Of a stretch of 64,000 bases of DNA, positions 5,126 through 46,674 are shown piece after piece. The stretch is from an uncultured Clostridia bacterium (lineage in GTDB: Bacteria; Bacillota; Clostridia; TANB77; CAG-508). The translations under genes and the position numbers were made by a program. Numbering within the stretch: the stretch's first letter is position 1; the number at the start of each line of letters is the position of its first letter. The notes under the pieces were generated by a model. It saw only the letters and a list, made by a program, of their open reading frames with translations. It had not been told where the DNA came from and made no database searches. The stretch covers positions 4,613-68,612 of the forward strand of contig CAKOXK010000002.1 of assembly GCA_934130085.1 (NCBI GenBank), given 5' to 3'.

Positions 5126-6595
5126 TTATTTTGCATTTTCATTTGCTCTTTTTTTCTTGCCTTTTGCTATCTTCTTTACAAGATCAAATAAATATTCAAA
5201 TGAATCAATTTTTAGCATTTTTGAGCCCCATATATATACAATCATTCCAACTATTACCTGTATTATAAAAGACATTATTGTTGGTAATTTTATTAGCCCT
5301 ACCCAATATACAATTACACCCATAATCAAAGCCAATATTATGCTTGGCAAAATATCTTTTATTTGTTCTATATAGCTATAGCCTAATAGCTTTTTATTTG
5401 GCCATGAATTAATTAATTGACTAATTAATCCACTCACTAATAAGCTTAATGCCATTGCCATTGGACTTATTCTCATTGTTAATAACAATAAGATTATACC
5501 TACTATCTTTTTTATAATTTCCATTTTTAAAAACAAATCGCTTCTACCCATTGATTTTATTGCATTTAAGTTGGCTGTATGTATTGGATAAAACATATAT
5601 GTTATACAGAATATACATAAGTAAGGTACACATTCCATCCATTTTTCAGTTAATAGAAGTTTAACAACATTGTTTGATGTAAATGCTAGTCCCATCATTA
5701 ATGGAGCCATAATATAAATACTTGTTTTTATAGCCCTTCTTGTCATGTCTCTAACACGTTCTTTATTCTCTTGTTCATTTGACATTGTAGGCAATAATAC
5801 ACTATCAATTGATGTATTTATATTTGTTACTATTATATTAGGAAACTGTTTTCCTCTATTATAGTATGCTAATTCAGACGATGAATACAACTTTCCAATT
5901 ATCAATTGACGAACATTTTCATAAGTTGTGTCAATTAGTGATGAAACAAGAAGCTTCCATCCGTATGAAAATAATCCCTTTAACCTTTTAAAAGAAAATT
6001 TTAATTTTGGTCTCCATTTAACAGTAATCCATAAAACTATTGTATCAACTGTCAAGTTAAATAATTGTTGTGTAACTAATGCCCAAACTCCAAATCCTTT
6101 TAATGCCATAGCAATTCCAATTATTGCAGCTCCTATTGTTCCTGCTAATGTTGCGAAAAAGAATTTTTTAAATATTAATTTTCTTGATACATAAGCCTGT
6201 TGTACATTTTTTACTCCTGATATAATTATTGTTAAGCTTAATACTCTTATGAGTGCTATTAATGATTGATCTTTATAAAAATTAGCAATGATCGGTGCAC
6301 ATAAAAACACCAACAAGTATAATATTAAACATGAAAATAGGTTTGTATAAAATACCGTTGAAAAATCTATATCGTCAGCATCTTTTTTTTGAATAAGTGC
6401 ATTTCCAAGTCCGCTATCCACAAAAACTTGCAAAATATTTGTAAATACCGTTATTAAAGCTATTGTACCATAAGCTTCCGGAGCTAATATTCTTGCAAGT
6501 ACAATTGATACTATAAAAGATACAATTTGCGCTCCACATCTTTCTGCAAATCTCCATATTATGTTTGAAAAAACATTTTGTTTTGTATTTTCCAT
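5126..6595 (-). CDS. polysaccharide flippase, Wzx-like (MOP superfamily), 489 aa
   Basis: A multi-pass membrane protein with the N-terminal pattern typical of Wzx/polysaccharide biosynthesis proteins (FSNIIWRFAERCGAQIVSFIVSIVLARIL...). It lies in a glycan locus. Confidence 0.75.
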   Translation of the reverse strand: MENTKQNVFSNIIWRFAERCGAQIVSFIVSIVLARILAPEAYGTIALITVFTNILQVFVDSGLGNALIQKKDADDIDFSTVFYTNLFSCLILYLLVFLCAPIIANFYKDQSLIALIRVLSLTIIISGVKNVQQAYVSRKLIFKKFFFATLAGTIGAAIIGIAMALKGFGVWALVTQQLFNLTVDTIVLWITVKWRPKLKFSFKRLKGLFSYGWKLLVSSLIDTTYENVRQLIIGKLYSSSELAYYNRGKQFPNIIVTNINTSIDSVLLPTMSNEQENKERVRDMTRRAIKTSIYIMAPLMMGLAFTSNNVVKLLLTEKWMECVPYLCIFCITYMFYPIHTANLNAIKSMGRSDLFLKMEIIKKIVGIILLLLTMRISPMAMALSLLVSGLISQLINSWPNKKLLGYSYIEQIKDILPSIILALIMGVIVYWVGLIKLPTIMSFIIQVIVGMIVYIWGSKMLKIDSFEYLFDLVKKIAKGKKKRANENAK

Positions 6596-28406: not shown

Positions 28407-28438
28407 AATATCCTTTCTAAATATATAAAATATCTGAA

Positions 28439-28576
28439 TAATTAATAATATATTGTTTTTTTTTATGCCGCGTAGCGATCAAGCGAAGCGCGAATGTTTC
28501 TTTCTTCTTACAGTTAATTTTGACTAATGAAGAAAGAAACGAACAAGGCATGAAAAAACAATATATTATTAATTAT
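28439..28576. repeat. copy 2 of the ~140-bp palindromic repeat element
   Basis: Outer arms ATAATTAATAATATATTGTTTTTT...GGCATG/CATGCC...; core GCGTAGCGATCAAGCGAAGCGCGAATGTTTCTTTCTTC...GAAGAAAGAAACGAACA. Confidence 0.85.
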
Positions 28577-39125: not shown

Positions 39126-39425
39126 TTAACTTCGTCTTTATTTTTTCTATTTTCATGTAAGAATTTTACAATATTTTTATCTAAAAGTCTATACATTTTA
39201 TAAATCGTATCTTTTTTTACTTAAAAAAAATACATTGTTTTTTTCTTTACATTTTACAAAACATTGAAAAACAATATAATATTAAGTCTTTTCTGTTAAT
39301 GAAATATTTATCATTTTTACCATTGTGTAGAAAAAGAAAGAACTAAATTGTTCTTTCTTCTTTAACTCTTATTATTACTTTCTTTGCATTTATTATCTCT
39401 TAACTTGTTAGCAATTTCTTGCATA

Positions 39426-41594
39426 CTAACCAGGCTCAGATATCTCATATTTGCTCATCCAGTAACCTGGTAACTCAACACCTGCAAAAGTAAATGCTTC
39501 AGGTACTTTATATATATGGTTTTCGTCTTCATGATTTGTAACATCCTTTGTTATAAAGTTAATGTCATATCCATTAGTACTTTTATCTATTTTATATTCA
39601 TATCTTGGTATCCACACCCAATATGCAATCTTGCCATTTGCTTTAGTTACAATGTTTGCCCATTTTCTTTGAGCATAATCATACCAATTTTGAGGTGCTG
39701 GTTGTGAAATTGGTATATCACTATGTTCTGTTCCATCATCATCCCAGTAAACATAATATGTGTTTTCTTTATCAAGATTATCTAAATTAACTTGTATTTT
39801 CTTTGATGATACGTTCTTTCTTCCTAACGGTATATTATCTTTCATTACACAAACATCATGATCTTTTGTTGAATCTATTCCAGTTATATTGCATGGCAAA
39901 ACGCCTGTAAATTTAAGATCTCCATCAATATATACTCTGTAGTCTTTTCCCTCTTCTTGGTTGTTTACTGAAACCGTTAGATTATTGTTGCAATCATAGC
40001 CTGTTGCGATTTCTTCTGCAGTATCTTTGGTCTCTGATATTTCATATTTGCTTATCCAATAACCTGATAATTCAACTCCCTTAAACGTAAATGCATCTGG
40101 TACTTTGTATATACTATTCTGACTGTTGCTATTAGTGAAATTTTTTGATACAAGTTCTAGACTTAGCCCTTCTTTTTGTGATGGCTCCATTTTATATCTA
40201 TAACGAGGAATCCATACCCAGAAAGTTACCATATTATTGGTCACAGTTACTATATTAGCATATTGTTTTTTACCATAGTTATACCAATTATCTGGAGCAG
40301 GACCTTTATCAATTCTGTTACCAATTTGCATATTTTCACCGTTCTCATCAAATGTTACATAATATGTGGCTTCTGGAGCCAAATTGCTTAAATCAACTAT
40401 CACCTTTTTTGTTGTAACCTGATTTCGTGCTATTATCTTACCATTTTTGGTTACACATATATCATATTTCTTATTTTCCTTTAGTCCGGTAATATCATGT
40501 GGTAAGCTCCCTTTATAATTTTCTATTCCATCTAGATAAACAGTGTAGTCTCCATTCTCCGTGTCATCACAATTTACAGTTATAAAATTAATATCAGTTC
40601 CAAGAGCTAATTGTGGTGAACCATTTTCGCAAACCTCATATTTGCTCATCCAGTAGCCTGCTAATTCCTGATTTGCAAATGTGAATGCTTCTGGTACTTG
40701 ATAATTTGAAGCAAGGCTTTCTGTTGTTCCATCTTCTTTTTTATATTCATTGGTTGTACTTATAAATCTTGCATCTACAGTTTGATCCGACTTAGTTATG
40801 TATGAATACCTTGGTATCCATACCCAATATGCAACCTGATTTCCTGTTACCGTTACTATATTTGCATACTTTTTCTGACTGCTACTATAATCATACCAAT
40901 CTGCTGGAGTATCTACCCTATCAATTCTGCCTGCTATACTTTGATTTCCGTTCTCATCATACGTTACATAGTATGTAGATGTAGGTTCCATATTTGATAA
41001 ATCTGGGGTTTGCATGAATACATCTCCAACTTTTTTGTAAGTTGTGCTTTCTGGAGTTTTATCACCTATATCTGTTTTTCCTCCATCATCTGAATCTTGT
41101 CCTTTGTTATCATCATCCTTACTGTCATCGCCACCATTTTTATCAACAAAATCTTGCCAGCTGTCATAGCTCCACACTGGAATATTTGCTTCAAAACACC
41201 ATTTAACACGTTTTTTATTGTTTGTATAAAAATAATATGTCTTGTTATTTTGAATGATTACTTCCTTTTCATAGTCGCTTTTTATTTCAGGTATAATCTT
41301 TTTTATTTTATCTTGCCCTACTAATCCAACACTTATTGTAAAATCAGGATTTTCAATTTGCTCCCCAGAAACATACATAGTTGCCTCTTCCATATATTTT
41401 TTCATCTGACTTACAAAAGCTGTTTTCTTGGTTCTTTCCAGTAAACCATTTTCACTAAAAACAGTAGCTATTGCAACGCCTGCAATAATTAGTAAAACTA
41501 TAATTGTAACTACAAGTGCTATTAAAGTTATACCATGGTTTTCCAAGCTGTTATTTTTATGTTTTAATTCAGGCTTTAACTTTTGTTTTTGCAT
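39426..41594 (-). CDS. type IV pilin-like (prepilin-type N-terminus) surface protein with three tandem ~200-aa repeat units; start overlaps the 3' end of the DGR RT gene
   Basis: N-terminus ...ENHGITLIALVVTIIVLLIIAGVAIA. The three repeats each end in GYWMSKYE(V/I) and contain WVWIPRY. The repeats are also visible at the DNA level (about 600-bp period). Confidence 0.6.
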   Translation of the reverse strand: MQKQKLKPELKHKNNSLENHGITLIALVVTIIVLLIIAGVAIATVFSENGLLERTKKTAFVSQMKKYMEEATMYVSGEQIENPDFTISVGLVGQDKIKKIIPEIKSDYEKEVIIQNNKTYYFYTNNKKRVKWCFEANIPVWSYDSWQDFVDKNGGDDSKDDDNKGQDSDDGGKTDIGDKTPESTTYKKVGDVFMQTPDLSNMEPTSTYYVTYDENGNQSIAGRIDRVDTPADWYDYSSSQKKYANIVTVTGNQVAYWVWIPRYSYITKSDQTVDARFISTTNEYKKEDGTTESLASNYQVPEAFTFANQELAGYWMSKYEVCENGSPQLALGTDINFITVNCDDTENGDYTVYLDGIENYKGSLPHDITGLKENKKYDICVTKNGKIIARNQVTTKKVIVDLSNLAPEATYYVTFDENGENMQIGNRIDKGPAPDNWYNYGKKQYANIVTVTNNMVTFWVWIPRYRYKMEPSQKEGLSLELVSKNFTNSNSQNSIYKVPDAFTFKGVELSGYWISKYEISETKDTAEEIATGYDCNNNLTVSVNNQEEGKDYRVYIDGDLKFTGVLPCNITGIDSTKDHDVCVMKDNIPLGRKNVSSKKIQVNLDNLDKENTYYVYWDDDGTEHSDIPISQPAPQNWYDYAQRKWANIVTKANGKIAYWVWIPRYEYKIDKSTNGYDINFITKDVTNHEDENHIYKVPEAFTFAGVELPGYWMSKYEISEPG

Positions 41595-42655
41595 TTTCCC
41601 TCCCCGTCTAATGGTTCTTCCTTATTTTCTCTATATATCCATTCACATTTGTCTATTACATTATCTATCAATTTTCTTGAGCTTGCATGAGAAGCATGAC
41701 CTATCCATGCATTTAAGCTTGCACTAACTTTAGTAATATTAAAATCTTTGTTTTTAAATTTTTGATTCCATTTTTTTATTTTTCTATAAATCTTTTTCTT
41801 ATTGCCTTTTAAAATTTTAATATGATTATCTTTTATTTTATATCCACAAAACTTCACACCTTGAGTATTTTTAAAATAATTAGTTTTTTCATTTAGTTCG
41901 AGTTCTAAGTTTTCTTTTAAATAATGTTCTAACTTATTTTTTACATCTTTGCATTCTTCTTTGTTATTCAATAATAATATAAAGTCATCCATGTACCTTA
42001 TATAGTACTTTACTTTTAACTTTTCCTTTACGTAGTGATCAAGCTGATTTAAATAGATATTTGCAAAAAATTGTGAAGTATAATTGCCTATTGGAATGCC
42101 CTTTTTGCTAGTAGTTCTTTGGTAAATGATATTTTTTGTAAATTTTAATAATTTCTTATCTTTTATATATCTTGATAAAATATTGTATAAAATTGATTTA
42201 TCTATGCTGTAGAAAAATTTTCTTATGTCGCATTTTAAAATGTAATAATCTTTATTTTTGTTATACATCTTTTTCATGTAATTTAATAATTGAATTATTG
42301 CTTTATGCACTCCTCTTCCTTCTATGCAAGCATAAGTATCACTTATAAACTTCGGAAGAAAAATTGGCTTTATAAATTCTTCTACATACCATTGATGCAT
42401 TACTCTATCTCTAAATGGTAGTGCCCAAATTATTCTCTCTTTTGGTTCATAGATTTTAAATTTTCTATAGCTTCCAATTACATATCTATCTTTGTAAATA
42501 TCTAATAGCATACTAGTAATGTTAGTTGCTAAGTTCATTTTGAATAAAACTACTTCTTTGTTTTCATGTTTTTCTTTTGAAGCTCTCTTATATGCTTTTA
42601 ACATTTTATCAAATTTAATCTTTTCTTCAAAAATATTACCTATCCTCTTTGGCAA
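41576..42655 (-). CDS. diversity-generating retroelement reverse transcriptase
   Basis: RT motifs including IPIGNYTSQFFANIYLNQLD (the DGR-specific IGxxxSQ) and RYMDDFILL (YMDD). No maturase or endonuclease domains. Adjacent avd and TR/VR. Confidence 0.88.
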   Translation of the reverse strand: MPKRIGNIFEEKIKFDKMLKAYKRASKEKHENKEVVLFKMNLATNITSMLLDIYKDRYVIGSYRKFKIYEPKERIIWALPFRDRVMHQWYVEEFIKPIFLPKFISDTYACIEGRGVHKAIIQLLNYMKKMYNKNKDYYILKCDIRKFFYSIDKSILYNILSRYIKDKKLLKFTKNIIYQRTTSKKGIPIGNYTSQFFANIYLNQLDHYVKEKLKVKYYIRYMDDFILLLNNKEECKDVKNKLEHYLKENLELELNEKTNYFKNTQGVKFCGYKIKDNHIKILKGNKKKIYRKIKKWNQKFKNKDFNITKVSASLNAWIGHASHASSRKLIDNVIDKCEWIYRENKEEPLDGEGKCKNKS

Positions 42656-42999
42656 CTTTTTATCCAGCCTCCTACCATCTTTCCTATTTCTTCAATTTGT
42701 GCATTCCAGTTCATATAGTTTTTATTTGTTATATATTTATATTCGTATGAAAGTCTAACCATTGTTTTTATTACATAGAGTTCTATATCAATTTCATTCA
42801 AGTATCTTACCTTTCTTTCTATGTCTGCTTCTTTCCAAGCCCAGATTACCTTTCTTAAAATATTATATAGTTCGTTTTTTATATCTGTACATAAATCGAA
42901 CCTTTCACTTTTAGGAAACTTTTGTAATAAGTTTTTTGAATAAAATATTAAATTGTTTATTTTTTCATAAATTATTAATCTATTATCTTTTTTAGGCAT
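42640..42999 (-). CDS. avd: accessory variability determinant (Avd, four-helix-bundle protein)
   Basis: 119 aa, basic and helical; resembles the Avd family. A 16-nt overlap with the RT gene implies translational coupling. Confidence 0.7.
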   Translation of the reverse strand: MPKKDNRLIIYEKINNLIFYSKNLLQKFPKSERFDLCTDIKNELYNILRKVIWAWKEADIERKVRYLNEIDIELYVIKTMVRLSYEYKYITNKNYMNWNAQIEEIGKMVGGWIKSCQRG

Positions 43000-43150
43000 T
43001 TAAAATTTTGAAACATCTCGCTTTCGTTTTTATTACTTGTAATTTGTTTCTTTAATGTTTTACCTGTTAAGGAAGGTGCTATACTTCTTTTGTACTTGTA
43101 CTTTTAGTCGAAAGGTTCCATGAAACCTTCCCCTCTTAAATTTATACAAG

Positions 43151-43290
43151 AGTCCCGAGCCAACACACAACACCGCACGAGACGAATTGTTACTGTTACT
43201 ATTACCATTGTTGTTATTATAGCCAAAGAGCGCATTGTTGCTACGTTTGAATACAGGGTTGCCAGAAGTAACAAAATTAGCGTTGGACGA
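43151..43290 (-). other. DGR template repeat (TR), 140 bp, intergenic between the target gene and avd
   Basis: 128/140 identity to 43473-43612. All 12 mismatches are at TR adenines on the coding (minus) strand. The TR is Asn-codon (AAC/AAT) rich in the target frame. Confidence 0.9.
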
Positions 43291-43468
43291 CAGTATAGTA
43301 CCTATGTTTTTAATTTATATTTTTTGAATATTTTATTAATATTATTTTTTGTTTTTTGTTTGTCTATTTTATGTATTTCAATTTATTCTTTATTATTATT
43401 TGTTTTTTTCATTTGTACTTTCGCAATTTATATTTTTTCGTCAATTGTTTTAAGTTCAAAGGGCAGAC

Positions 43469-44131
43469 TTAAAGTCCCGAGCCAACACACAACACCGCAC
43501 GAGACGAATCGCTACTGCTACTAACACCATTGTCGTTATTATAGCCAAAGAGCGCATTGTAGCTACGTTTGAATACAGGGCCGCCAGAAGTAACAAAACC
43601 AGCGCTGGACGAGCTTTTCCAGTTTTTGGTTTCTAGCGTAGCATCTCCTCTTTTTGCTACCTCTCCTGTATATATATTAACATATCTGCTATCTGCATTT
43701 TTCAATTTTGACATATAATCATTTGATGTATTGTAAATACCTGCTACATATTCGTATGTCCCATCTGCCATTTGAAAAATTCCTGTTGCATTGCCTGTTG
43801 TTGAAGCATCTGACCTACCTGATGGAGCACTTCCATAAGGTGATGCTGCAAGCATTGCTGCTGCTCCCCATTCAGTATTCTTAGCCATGTGTACATCAAC
43901 TCCATTATTGCTTGAATCTAAATAAGTGGTGCTATCTAATTGAGCTTTTTTACCTAGTGTTCCTCCTTCAACTTCCATTTGCCTTATTTTTACAAAGAAA
44001 TCATTTGCTGTTGTATTCTTTAAACTAGTTACCCCAGGTCTTGATTGAACCGCCGCATTTACTTTTCCTGTTAACATGAAAGCAGTTAAAATTCCAACAG
44101 TAAAAACTATTGCTGACTTTTTTATTTTCAT
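43469..44131 (-). CDS. DGR target protein: small secreted variable protein (220 aa, SPase-I-type signal peptide, C-terminal variable region)
   Basis: Signal peptide MKIKKSAIVFTVGILTAFMLTGKVNA; the last ~46 codons are the VR, homologous to the TR through the stop codon. Confidence 0.85.
   Translation of the reverse strand: MKIKKSAIVFTVGILTAFMLTGKVNAAVQSRPGVTSLKNTTANDFFVKIRQMEVEGGTLGKKAQLDSTTYLDSSNNGVDVHMAKNTEWGAAAMLAASPYGSAPSGRSDASTTGNATGIFQMADGTYEYVAGIYNTSNDYMSKLKNADSRYVNIYTGEVAKRGDATLETKNWKSSSSAGFVTSGGPVFKRSYNALFGYNNDNGVSSSSDSSRAVLCVGSGL
43473..43612 (-). other. DGR variable repeat (VR) at the 3' end of the target gene
   Basis: See the TR entry. Substitutions are at AAY codon positions 1 and 2 (for example TR AAT to VR GAT, AAC to AGC/GAC/TAC/GGC). 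Confidence 0.9.
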
Positions 44132-44164
44132 TTGTTCTTCCTTTCCTTTTACTTTTACTTTTTT

Positions 44165-44200
44165 ATCATTAAGTTATCCTAAAGTAAGTAACTTAATGAT
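44165..44200. promoter_or_regulatory. perfect 36-bp palindrome (12-bp arms ATCATTAAGTTA/TAACTTAATGAT, 12-nt spacer) 34 bp upstream of the DGR target start; the left member of a 30-bp inverted repeat pair
   Basis: Direct inspection; the partner lies at 44356-44385. Confidence 0.7.
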
Positions 44201-44310
44201 AAAAATAAATTAGCTAAAGTTCACCAAAATGCAGTATTCCGTAAGAATTATTCTAATGTAGTAAGACTTATTTTTAATGTTACATGTATATTACGCAAGT
44301 ACGAAAAAAG

Positions 44311-44339
44311 TTGAAATTTTGCCTATTTTATAGTATTTT
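44311..44339 (+). promoter_or_regulatory. candidate sigma-A promoter (TTGAAA-N17-TATTTT) inside the IR-bracketed segment, currently facing the + strand gene at 44604
   Basis: Hexamer match and spacing only. Confidence 0.3.
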
Positions 44340-44355
44340 ATACATATAGTTAGTT

Positions 44356-44385
44356 ATCATTAAGTTACTTACTTTAGGATAACTT
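44356..44385. repeat. right member of the 30-bp perfect inverted repeat (reverse complement of 44171-44200)
   Basis: ATCATTAAGTTACTTACTTTAGGATAACTT equals the reverse complement of AAGTTATCCTAAAGTAAGTAACTTAATGAT. Confidence 0.8.
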
Positions 44386-44603
44386 TTACCTTTTTTAAAC
44401 AATAAACTGTATTTTCTATTTTTTGTTCTTAAGCACTAAACAATAATATTTAGTGTTTTTATTTTTGTTTTTTCTTTTATCTTTTCCAAACTATTTTTCA
44501 TTTTTACTATATTAATTTTAAGTAACACCATTTGTTTTCATACATACTATATAATGTGAATAATTATTAATTTTTTAATAATAATATAACTATTGGAGGA
44601 ATT

Positions 44604-45461
44604 ATGGTTGCTTTTTCAGTGAAGGACTCTGATAAAAAAGTTATATATTTACTTTATGATTACTTATGCCAAATTGAATGGATTGATGTAGATTTTGAGA
44701 AACATTTTTCTAAAGGATTTTATGTAGTTGTTTTTAAATATAAAGGTTCAGATTTTAATGAGTTTTTGGACAATTTTTCTTATGTTATTGCATCTTTTAT
44801 TTTAAGATATTATGAGCATTTAATTGTTAAATATTTGATTAATACTGATTATTGTTATTTTGAGAAGAATGAAAAATTAGTTATCGAGCAAGAATTTGGA
44901 CTTTTAAATAAGCCCAATATAGTAAAGTCTAATAGGAAGCTTATTTGTAAATTGACTAAAAGTTATGCAATGCAGAATAGTTTTTTTGTTTTTAGAGGTT
45001 TTATTTGCTTTGCATTATCTGATTATATTTCTGTTCTAAAAGAACTTGTTCAAGAGTCTGTTAATCAATTTATTATTGATAAAGAGTATTTGAGGTTTGT
45101 AGATATGCTAAGAGATTATATTAGAAACAGCGTTTGTAAAACGTCAACAATTCATCTATTATATTTAAATAACATTGCTTACTTAATTGATGATGATGGC
45201 AAGGATATTGCCCTTGATGATTTTTCAAGAACCTTCGTTTCTGATATTTCTTTTTCAAAAAACGACTATGTTTTAAATACCTTGGTAGGAATGGCTCCAA
45301 GTAAAGTTGTTATTCATTTGCTTTCTCCAGCTGACCAGTTCATTAGAACAATTCAATTAATTTTTGAAAATAGAGCAATACTTTGCACCTCATGTGATAT
45401 TTGTGAGAATTACAAAAAAAGCTTAGAAAAAATTAAAGATTCAGGAAAGTGCAATAATTAA
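44604..45461 (+). CDS. hypothetical protein (285 aa; a possible but weak resemblance to the sporulation protein YtxC family)
   Basis: GGAGG RBS 8 nt upstream of the ATG; consistent codon usage. Confidence 0.5.
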   Translation: MVAFSVKDSDKKVIYLLYDYLCQIEWIDVDFEKHFSKGFYVVVFKYKGSDFNEFLDNFSYVIASFILRYYEHLIVKYLINTDYCYFEKNEKLVIEQEFGLLNKPNIVKSNRKLICKLTKSYAMQNSFFVFRGFICFALSDYISVLKELVQESVNQFIIDKEYLRFVDMLRDYIRNSVCKTSTIHLLYLNNIAYLIDDDGKDIALDDFSRTFVSDISFSKNDYVLNTLVGMAPSKVVIHLLSPADQFIRTIQLIFENRAILCTSCDICENYKKSLEKIKDSGKCNN

Positions 45462-46408: not shown

Positions 46409-46493
46409 GTTAACAAGAATAAGCCTTAAAGAATATTTCATTTTTCAGTAAATAGAAAAGCTCTATAACTTTCTTCATTATACAAAATATAGA

Positions 46494-46635
46494 AGAAATC
46501 GAAAGATATATTGTTTTTCAATTTTGCGTTAGCGATCAAGCGAAGCGCGAATGTTTCTTTCTTCCTAAAGTTAATCTTGACTAGTGAAGAAAGAAACGAA
46601 CAAAAAATTGAAAAACAATATATCTTTCGATTTCT
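46494..46635. repeat. copy 3 of the ~140-bp palindromic repeat element, between convergent SDR and rplQ genes
   Basis: Perfect 32-bp outer inverted arms AGAAATCGAAAGATATATTGTTTTTCAATTTT / AAAATTGAAAAACAATATATCTTTCGATTTCT; the core is identical to copy 2 except at 2-3 positions. Confidence 0.85.
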
Positions 46636-46674
46636 TTAATTAATTATAATTATTAATAAATTATAATTATACAA

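Follow-up and report, generated by a model that had tools for sequence, protein, structure and literature searches.

Does the pair of inverted repeats immediately upstream of a DGR target gene bracket a segment that inverts, and would such an inversion set whether the variable protein is made? This question is raised by the window, i.e., the whole stretch of 64,000 nucleotides of low-GC (about 29%) chromosomal DNA that was analyzed. An earlier note on this DNA had proposed either an invertible promoter switch or paired operators for a dimeric regulator. The evidence gathered here points to the former: the locus is probably an inverton, i.e., a site-specific inversion switch by which the gene of the DGR variable protein is set to ON or OFF. 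The features on which the argument is built are listed in Table 1.

Table 1. Features of the switch and of the adjoining DGR locus, in window coordinates.
Feature	Position	Strand	Description
DGR reverse transcriptase (RT)	41576..42655	-	downstream of target
bAvd accessory protein	42640..42999	-	downstream of target
Rfam RT-14 RNA	43009..43152	-	63.7 bits (gathering score 48.1); between TR and bAvd
TR, DGR template repeat	43151..43290	-	all TR/VR differences at TR adenines
VR	43473..43612	-	C-terminal 140 nt of target gene
DGR target gene	43469..44131	-	220 aa with signal peptide and C-terminal VR; no Pfam family
Full palindrome around site P	44160..44205	.	arms 44160-44176 / 44189-44205
Site P, gene-proximal inverted repeat	44171..44202	.	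exact reverse complement of site D
Invertible segment, 151 nt	44203..44353	.	window orientation named OFF: promoter-like block points away from DGR target
Invariant block TTACATGTATATTAC with palindrome TACATGTA	44280..44294	.	from nine-copy alignment
Promoter-like block TTGAAA-N17-TATTTT	44311..44339	+	preceded by A-tract GAAAAAAG
Site D, gene-distal inverted repeat	44354..44385	.	in gene orientation, AAGTTA-TCCTAAAGTAAG-TAACTTAATGATAA
Terminator-like hairpin AAGCACTAAA-N8-TTTAGTGTTT, then T-run	44431..44480	+	directly outside site D
ytxC (Pfam YtxC)	44604..45461	+	divergent neighbor; promoter-like block points to it in the window

The target gene and its inverted repeats

The gene that follows the repeats is confirmed as a genuine DGR target by a TR and a VR that differ at adenines, together with an RT, bAvd and an RT-14 RNA, the latter being the sole gathering-level Rfam match in the window. 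The divergent neighbor ytxC is unlikely to be the regulated gene, since a consensus scan finds promoter-like sequences of its own nearer its start, and since it has no linkage to the switch at other loci.

About 100 small secreted proteins (215-250 aa) from MAGs of gut Clostridia and Bacilli make up the family of the target; they have no Pfam domain, and their invariant residues include D79, H81, M82, N85 and E87. The AF2 model of the target has a pLDDT of 80.7 and shows a weak, non-significant likeness to the folds of C-type lectins, FGE and TaqVP. At least 20 target paralogues are carried by some MAGs, e.g., Lapin-012 bin84. On its downstream side the RT adjoins a 722-aa ORF (39426-41594, - strand) whose N-terminus is prepilin-like (…NHGITLIALVVTIIVLLIIAG…) and which contains three ~200-aa repeats in tandem. 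This ORF matches neither Pfam nor the TR, and it has a paralogue beside the second target locus described below.

The repeats had been reported in the earlier note as perfect, 30 bp long and ~155 bp apart. They are indeed 100% complementary, and measure 32 nt with 151 nt between the arms. Their 24-nt core is found in two places in the window only, with 0 matches in 100 shuffles, and the pair is one of three in the window with at least 24 nt, at least 95% complementarity and less than 2 kb between partners.

The two sites differ in what surrounds them. Site P is part of a palindrome that reaches beyond the repeat and consists of perfect 17-nt arms (core TTATCATTAAGTTA) around a 12-nt asymmetric spacer, TCCTAAAGTAAG; the palindrome ends 33 nt before the target ATG (44131), and the target RBS, GGAAAGGAAG, follows just 3' of it at 44146-44137. 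The 12-bp arms noted earlier are the inner part of these longer ones. Site D has one full arm and a second, outer arm that is symmetric over 6 nt only, and its spacer lies in the orientation opposite to that of site P. The site P palindrome is a candidate for a complete recombinase core site. As RNA it is predicted to fold into a stem-loop of -16 to -19 kcal/mol with a z of -4 to -5.

Exact database scans yielded no matches. The 38-nt proximal palindrome has 0 exact matches in the GTDB representative genomes and the 32-nt repeat has 0 exact matches in the JGI metagenomes, both being sets from which the species is absent. No Rfam family was matched in 44100-44620 at a permissive threshold.

Orientation and conservation of the segment among assemblies

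Public contigs were gathered that encode proteins closely similar to the target or to its neighbors; most of the further contigs retrieved by an Avd look-up end at the TR/VR repeat, short of the switch. ENA contig ERZ27287188 k141_884380 (L001) matches the window with 100% identity. At the orthologous ytxC/target/avd/RT locus, the promoter-like block points away from the target in the window/L001 and in contig L089, whereas it points toward the target in contigs L008 and L091, which come from two other samples. The interior of the window's segment is 94% identical to that of L008 and L091 when reverse-complemented only, versus about 60% in forward orientation, while the flanks are collinear and 94-98% identical. 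This collinearity covers the 150 nt beyond the distal repeat and the leader beyond the proximal repeat, the strand switch in the BLAST alignments is confined to 44171-44385, and the breakpoints lie within the repeats. Comparing assemblies, the segment therefore occurs in both orientations between unchanged flanks. Given repeats of 32 nt, a segment of 151 nt, a distance of 33 nt to the ATG and both orientations among assemblies, the locus has the make-up of an inverton. The earlier note had suggested a look for assemblies of either orientation and had predicted that a flip would aim the promoter-like block at the DGR target; both types of assembly exist, and the block faces the target in the second.

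These observations bear directly on the proposal of paired operators, in which the two sites would bind a dimeric regulator, possibly with DNA looping, and the segment would be static. The palindromic arms do resemble a dimer-binding site, and sites ~180 bp apart could loop. Such an arrangement leaves the reversed interior unexplained, and the arm motif, which had been suggested as something to look for elsewhere, is absent from other promoters in the 64 kb: the 14-nt arm has exact matches at three positions, all within the switch element. The operator reading is therefore hardly plausible.

A different explanation accepts the orientation difference and attributes it to rare unprogrammed events, such as RecA-type recombination fixed per lineage, or to assembler mis-joins. 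In its favor, where contigs span the whole segment at the ytxC locus, orientation goes with strain lineage, the two lineages being 2.5-6.5% apart, and three contigs (L002, L090 and L092) are broken inside the repeats, which indicates that assemblers struggle there. Against it, each orientation recurs across independent samples and assemblers, a 125-kb MEGAHIT k141 contig among them, and the final k of these assemblies exceeds the 32 nt of the repeat. L090 also speaks against it: over 3.4 kb this contig matches the OFF contig L089 at 99.97% identity, with an identical variable protein encoded, yet it starts with an ON junction, in which the promoter end of the segment (11 nt) is followed by the repeat and the proximal flank. 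Such a junction points to a recent flip between near-isogenic strains, although the evidence is weak because it consists of 11 nt at the end of a contig with 3.4x coverage. Altogether, we regard rare events or artefacts as quite improbable, and a further argument against them is given below with the sister lineage.

The contig breaks themselves were also considered as proof of mixed orientation. They are compatible with it, but the repeat alone predicts them, and they are not decisive because Logan assemblies use k=31, at which a 32-nt inverted repeat breaks the graph unaided.

A second locus carries the switch as well. There, next to rpsF-ssb-rpsR, lies a paralogue that shares 88% aa identity with the target and has no RT. 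It comes with a VR of its own, what is left of a TR and part of the RT 3' end, and it is preceded by the identical type of repeat pair, an 81%-identical interior and ~100 nt of homologous outer flank. This copy is ON in 9/9 contigs. Its proximal site differs by three substitutions (AAGTTA/TAACTT to AGGCTA/TAGCTT), one compensatory pair and one G·T, which retain the palindrome. In contig L095 the DGR occupies a third context, again with the switch upstream, here OFF. As far as these contigs tell, the switch is tied to the gene and not to the genomic place.

The rpsF-ssb-rpsR locus contains an RT-less, circularly permuted relic of the DGR cassette (L004 1239-5056; also L003, L005-L007, L093, L094 and L107). 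In order, it comprises a paralogue (750 aa) of the 722-aa gene, the switch, the target with VR, a TR-like copy and an RT 3' remnant of ~100 nt. The relic, which was read from separate contigs, is ~80% identical in DNA to window positions 39239-44466.

A mobile origin also has to be weighed: the 215-bp unit could be a MITE-like element with terminal inverted repeats that was inserted either way. Its ~30-nt terminal inverted repeats and its size of ~200 bp are MITE-like, and the window does hold a separate palindromic repeat family in both orientations. Nevertheless, no target-site duplication is seen (the flanks are TTTTATCATT and TTACCTTTTT), no dispersed copies exist in the window, and all copies found elsewhere are attached to a target paralogue or orthologue with ~100 nt of conserved outer flank. 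In addition, the proximal palindrome reaches outside the repeat, and a two-way insertion at identical nucleotide positions is improbable. A MITE-like unit is thus very improbable.

The separate family just mentioned is a palindromic repeat element of ~140 nt, present in two copies (28438-28576 and 46493-46636) with the termini ATATATTGTTTTT / AAAAACAATATAT and the common core AGCGATCAAGCGAAGCGCGAATGTTTCTTTCTTC...GAAGAAAGAAACGAAC. It matches no Rfam family. The copy of L008, between an SDR gene and rplQ, has the opposite orientation relative to those genes, and L096 is without the element there, with an intergenic gap of 78 nt. It is either a MITE-like element or a second invertible element.

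The sister lineage represented by contig L096 allows the conservation of the repeats to be compared with that of their surroundings. Its locus is syntenic, with a target that is 73% identical and neighboring genes that are 73-76% identical in DNA, while ~380 nt around the switch are not alignable to the window by BLAST. A repeat pair is nevertheless present at the same position: 33 nt, 97% complementary and 149 nt apart. The repeat sequence, TTTTCATTAA-GCATAAAGA-TTAATGAAAA, is unlike that of the window, yet TCATTAA arms and a central TAAAG/CTTTA core are common to both. Both L096 sites are full palindromes of the form TTTTCATTAA-N9-TTAATGAAAA, whose 9-nt spacer is inverted between the sites.

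As the L096 pair is kept while its surroundings are unalignable, the two arms co-evolve, which is what a functional pair of recombination sites would predict. That the repeats are perfect or near-perfect within each lineage, with diverged surroundings, argues for selection on the pair, and it likewise speaks against rare unprogrammed events. The L096 sites also bear on the stem-loop of site P, which could be a 5' stabilizer of the ON mRNA or the mere footprint of a two-armed recombinase site; the footprint is favored because both L096 sites are palindromic.

The promoter-like block fares less well in this lineage. Matches are found on both strands of L096, so its orientation state is ambiguous, and a conserved promoter geometry was not accepted for it because an equally good or better promoter-like site lies on the other strand.

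The start of the L096 target is also unusual. Within 6001-6100, a strong RBS, GGAAAGGAG, precedes a 3-codon ORF (ATG TTT ATT TAA), and the conserved target start lies ~55 nt beyond this ORF without an obvious RBS. The gene as called uses an upstream in-frame ATG, which adds 28 residues ahead of the signal peptide. Either a leader peptide or a start that has decayed may explain the 3-codon ORF.

More distant homologues (at most 60% identity; 19 GTDB and 30 metagenome loci) were searched for pairs of at least 18 nt and at least 85% that lie 40-500 nt apart, a setting that recovers the positive controls and misses shorter repeats. No such pair was found upstream of the gene, which indicates the switch is lineage-restricted.

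Segment interior and proposed mechanism

When the nine copies are set to one orientation and aligned, the A-tract with TTGAAA-N17-TATTTT is the best-conserved part of the interior. In the rpsF-type copy the -35 reads CTGAAG, and the block is CTGAAG-N17-TATTAT or TACTAT. The -10 hexamer and the repeat are separated by 14 nt. The consensus scan recovers the promoter-like sequence that the earlier note had seen facing the gene at 44604, a 9/12 match to the consensus, which by itself is no better than chance, given that 10 such sites were found in this AT-rich region versus 10.4 expected. Based on the conservation of the A-tract/-35/-10 block, we take it as the presumed promoter, and the orientation in which it faces the target is named ON. 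A second promoter-like match inside the segment (TTAAAA-16-TAGAAT, - strand, 44277-44250) was not adopted as a promoter because it is not conserved in the other copies.

The alignment also reveals an interior block, TTACATGTATATTAC, that is unchanged in all nine copies, the 81%-identical rpsF type included. It is possibly the binding site of an accessory factor or a regulator.

Outside site D, the terminator-like hairpin is oriented such that it would stop transcripts that exit the switch toward ytxC. At the rpsF locus, a hairpin also lies outside the distal site, as judged by eye.

According to the proposed mechanism, the segment would be bracketed by two 32-nt inverted sites, each with an asymmetric center (core TAAAG/CTTTA) between symmetric arms, and would carry a sigma-70-type promoter at one end. 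A recombinase presumably encoded elsewhere in the genome would pair both sites and invert the segment, presumably reversibly within a clone; arms around an asymmetric spacer would fit a tyrosine recombinase best. In ON, the presumed state of L008 and L091, the promoter would fire across the proximal site, yielding a transcript that starts a few nt before the proximal palindrome and contains, in order, a stable 5' stem-loop, the RBS and the target gene. In OFF, the presumed state of the window, the promoter would point to ytxC, and its transcripts would meet the hairpin and T-run outside the distal site, which may act as a terminator. The target is then probably silent, since nothing but the RBS lies in the 33 nt that separate the proximal site from the ATG.

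Inversion could regulate the gene in another manner, by acting in the 5' leader: a fixed promoter further upstream would be used in both states, and one orientation would create a terminator or a Rho-entry site. The best-studied Clostridioides switches do act after transcription initiation (PMC7446863), the in-segment promoter is a consensus-level match only, and strong hairpins are present at the sites. On the other hand, the consensus scan finds no promoter-like match toward the target outside the distal repeat (44386-44600, - strand), conservation within the segment is highest in the block taken as promoter, and the outer distal hairpin would terminate transcripts that exit the switch, not those that enter it. 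We therefore consider leader-based control unlikely, and an invertible promoter is retained as the working model.

With an invertible promoter, transcription in ON may run on into TR-avd-RT, as terminator prediction gave nothing between the target gene and these elements; a candidate internal promoter, TAGACA-16-TAATAT, is also found between them. The stronger proposal, that the switch gates the whole DGR since the invertible promoter also drives the TR RNA, Avd and RT, is possible but doubtful. If it holds, hypermutation would be phase-variable: ON cells would both express and diversify the protein, and in OFF cells the variant would be silent and frozen. Moreover, two diversified proteins could be displayed independently, because the RT-less paralogue at rpsF owns a copy of the switch.

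Invertons are known, and what is new within the literature searched is the DGR variable protein as gated cargo. No description of a DGR target behind an invertible promoter was found in that literature, which yielded incidental co-mentions only, and the main recent study of gut DGRs makes no mention of invertons or phase variation. DGRs and invertons are the two main routes of programmed surface variation in gut bacteria, and here they would be stacked on one gene, with an ON/OFF switch that would set whether a protein with an RT-rewritten binding site gets made. The regulation of DGR targets and of DGR activity is largely unknown, and this locus offers a concrete regulatory input, which may explain how cells escape the cost of expressing unfit variants. 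The results also extend well-supported invertons to uncultured low-GC Clostridia of the human gut, including Hadza samples.

Recombinase and known switch systems

As the earlier note had suggested, genes for tyrosine or serine recombinases were sought. None is present in the 64-kb window, based on a reading of all ORFs and on regular expressions for the motifs of both families. The other genes of the window comprise cell-envelope polysaccharide genes, dnaK/dnaJ, radA, ftsK and ribosomal-protein operons.

The classical ON/OFF promoter inversions, E. coli fimS and Salmonella hin, control a surface structure. They have their recombinase genes next to the switch (fimB/fimE for fimS) or within it (hin), unlike here, where the 64 kb around the switch hold none. 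The fimS repeats have 9 bp and the hix sites have a 2-bp core.

The invertible promoters of Bacteroides, known from capsular polysaccharide loci and Mpi, are segments of 150-200 bp between inverted repeats of ~20-30 nt. In the PhaseFinder inverton catalogue of Jiang et al. 2019, orientation reportedly varies among gut metagenome samples. The locus studied here resembles these systems in having a promoter-like element on a short segment whose orientation varies among samples, and it differs in phylum, promoter type and repeat sequences. In addition, Bacteroides has a consensus repeat across many loci, whereas the repeat found here is private to the paralogues of the DGR target.

The switches of Clostridioides difficile (flgB, cwpV, cmrRST and pdcB, with RecV as recombinase) share with this locus a low-GC Clostridia host. 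They also share a short segment (154 bp for flgB, 151 here) directly upstream of a surface- or secretion-related gene. In cwpV, regulation proceeds via a leader terminator; this switch and the Rho-dependent flgB both differ from the present one, in which a candidate promoter lies within the segment. The flgB switch has 154 bp between its inverted repeats, acts via Rho in the leader after transcription initiation, and is inverted by RecV, which is encoded elsewhere in the genome (PMC7446863).

At the level of the sites, C. difficile repeats hold degenerate inverted arms around an asymmetric spacer, as do those described here, and each repeat has been modeled as two recombinase-binding arms and an asymmetric spacer that has to match between partner sites (PMC12282940). 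The central asymmetric region is longer in our case, with 12 nt in the window and 9 nt in L096 versus 6 nt in RecV sites; canonical tyrosine-recombinase spacers have 6-8 nt. The published RecV-site motif, AWAGTWNCCNTTW-N6-WAANGGNWACTWT (PMC12282940), has no match in 44160-44385 with up to 3 mismatches, so the present sites represent an inverton architecture outside that motif. The only match in the window, at 40222-40253 (+) with 3 mismatches and inside the 722-aa gene, is probably due to chance, since at least one such match occurred in 7/100 shuffles. As the motif is missing, the likeness to Clostridioides switches that the earlier note had drawn concerns the architecture alone.

A further difference from the C. 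difficile switches is the gene presumably regulated, a DGR variable protein. In this respect it is comparable to DGRs with cis and remote targets, with which it shares adenine changes between TR and VR, bAvd, an RT and an RT-14 RNA. As in DGRs with remote targets, a second VR-bearing paralogue is located at a separate locus.
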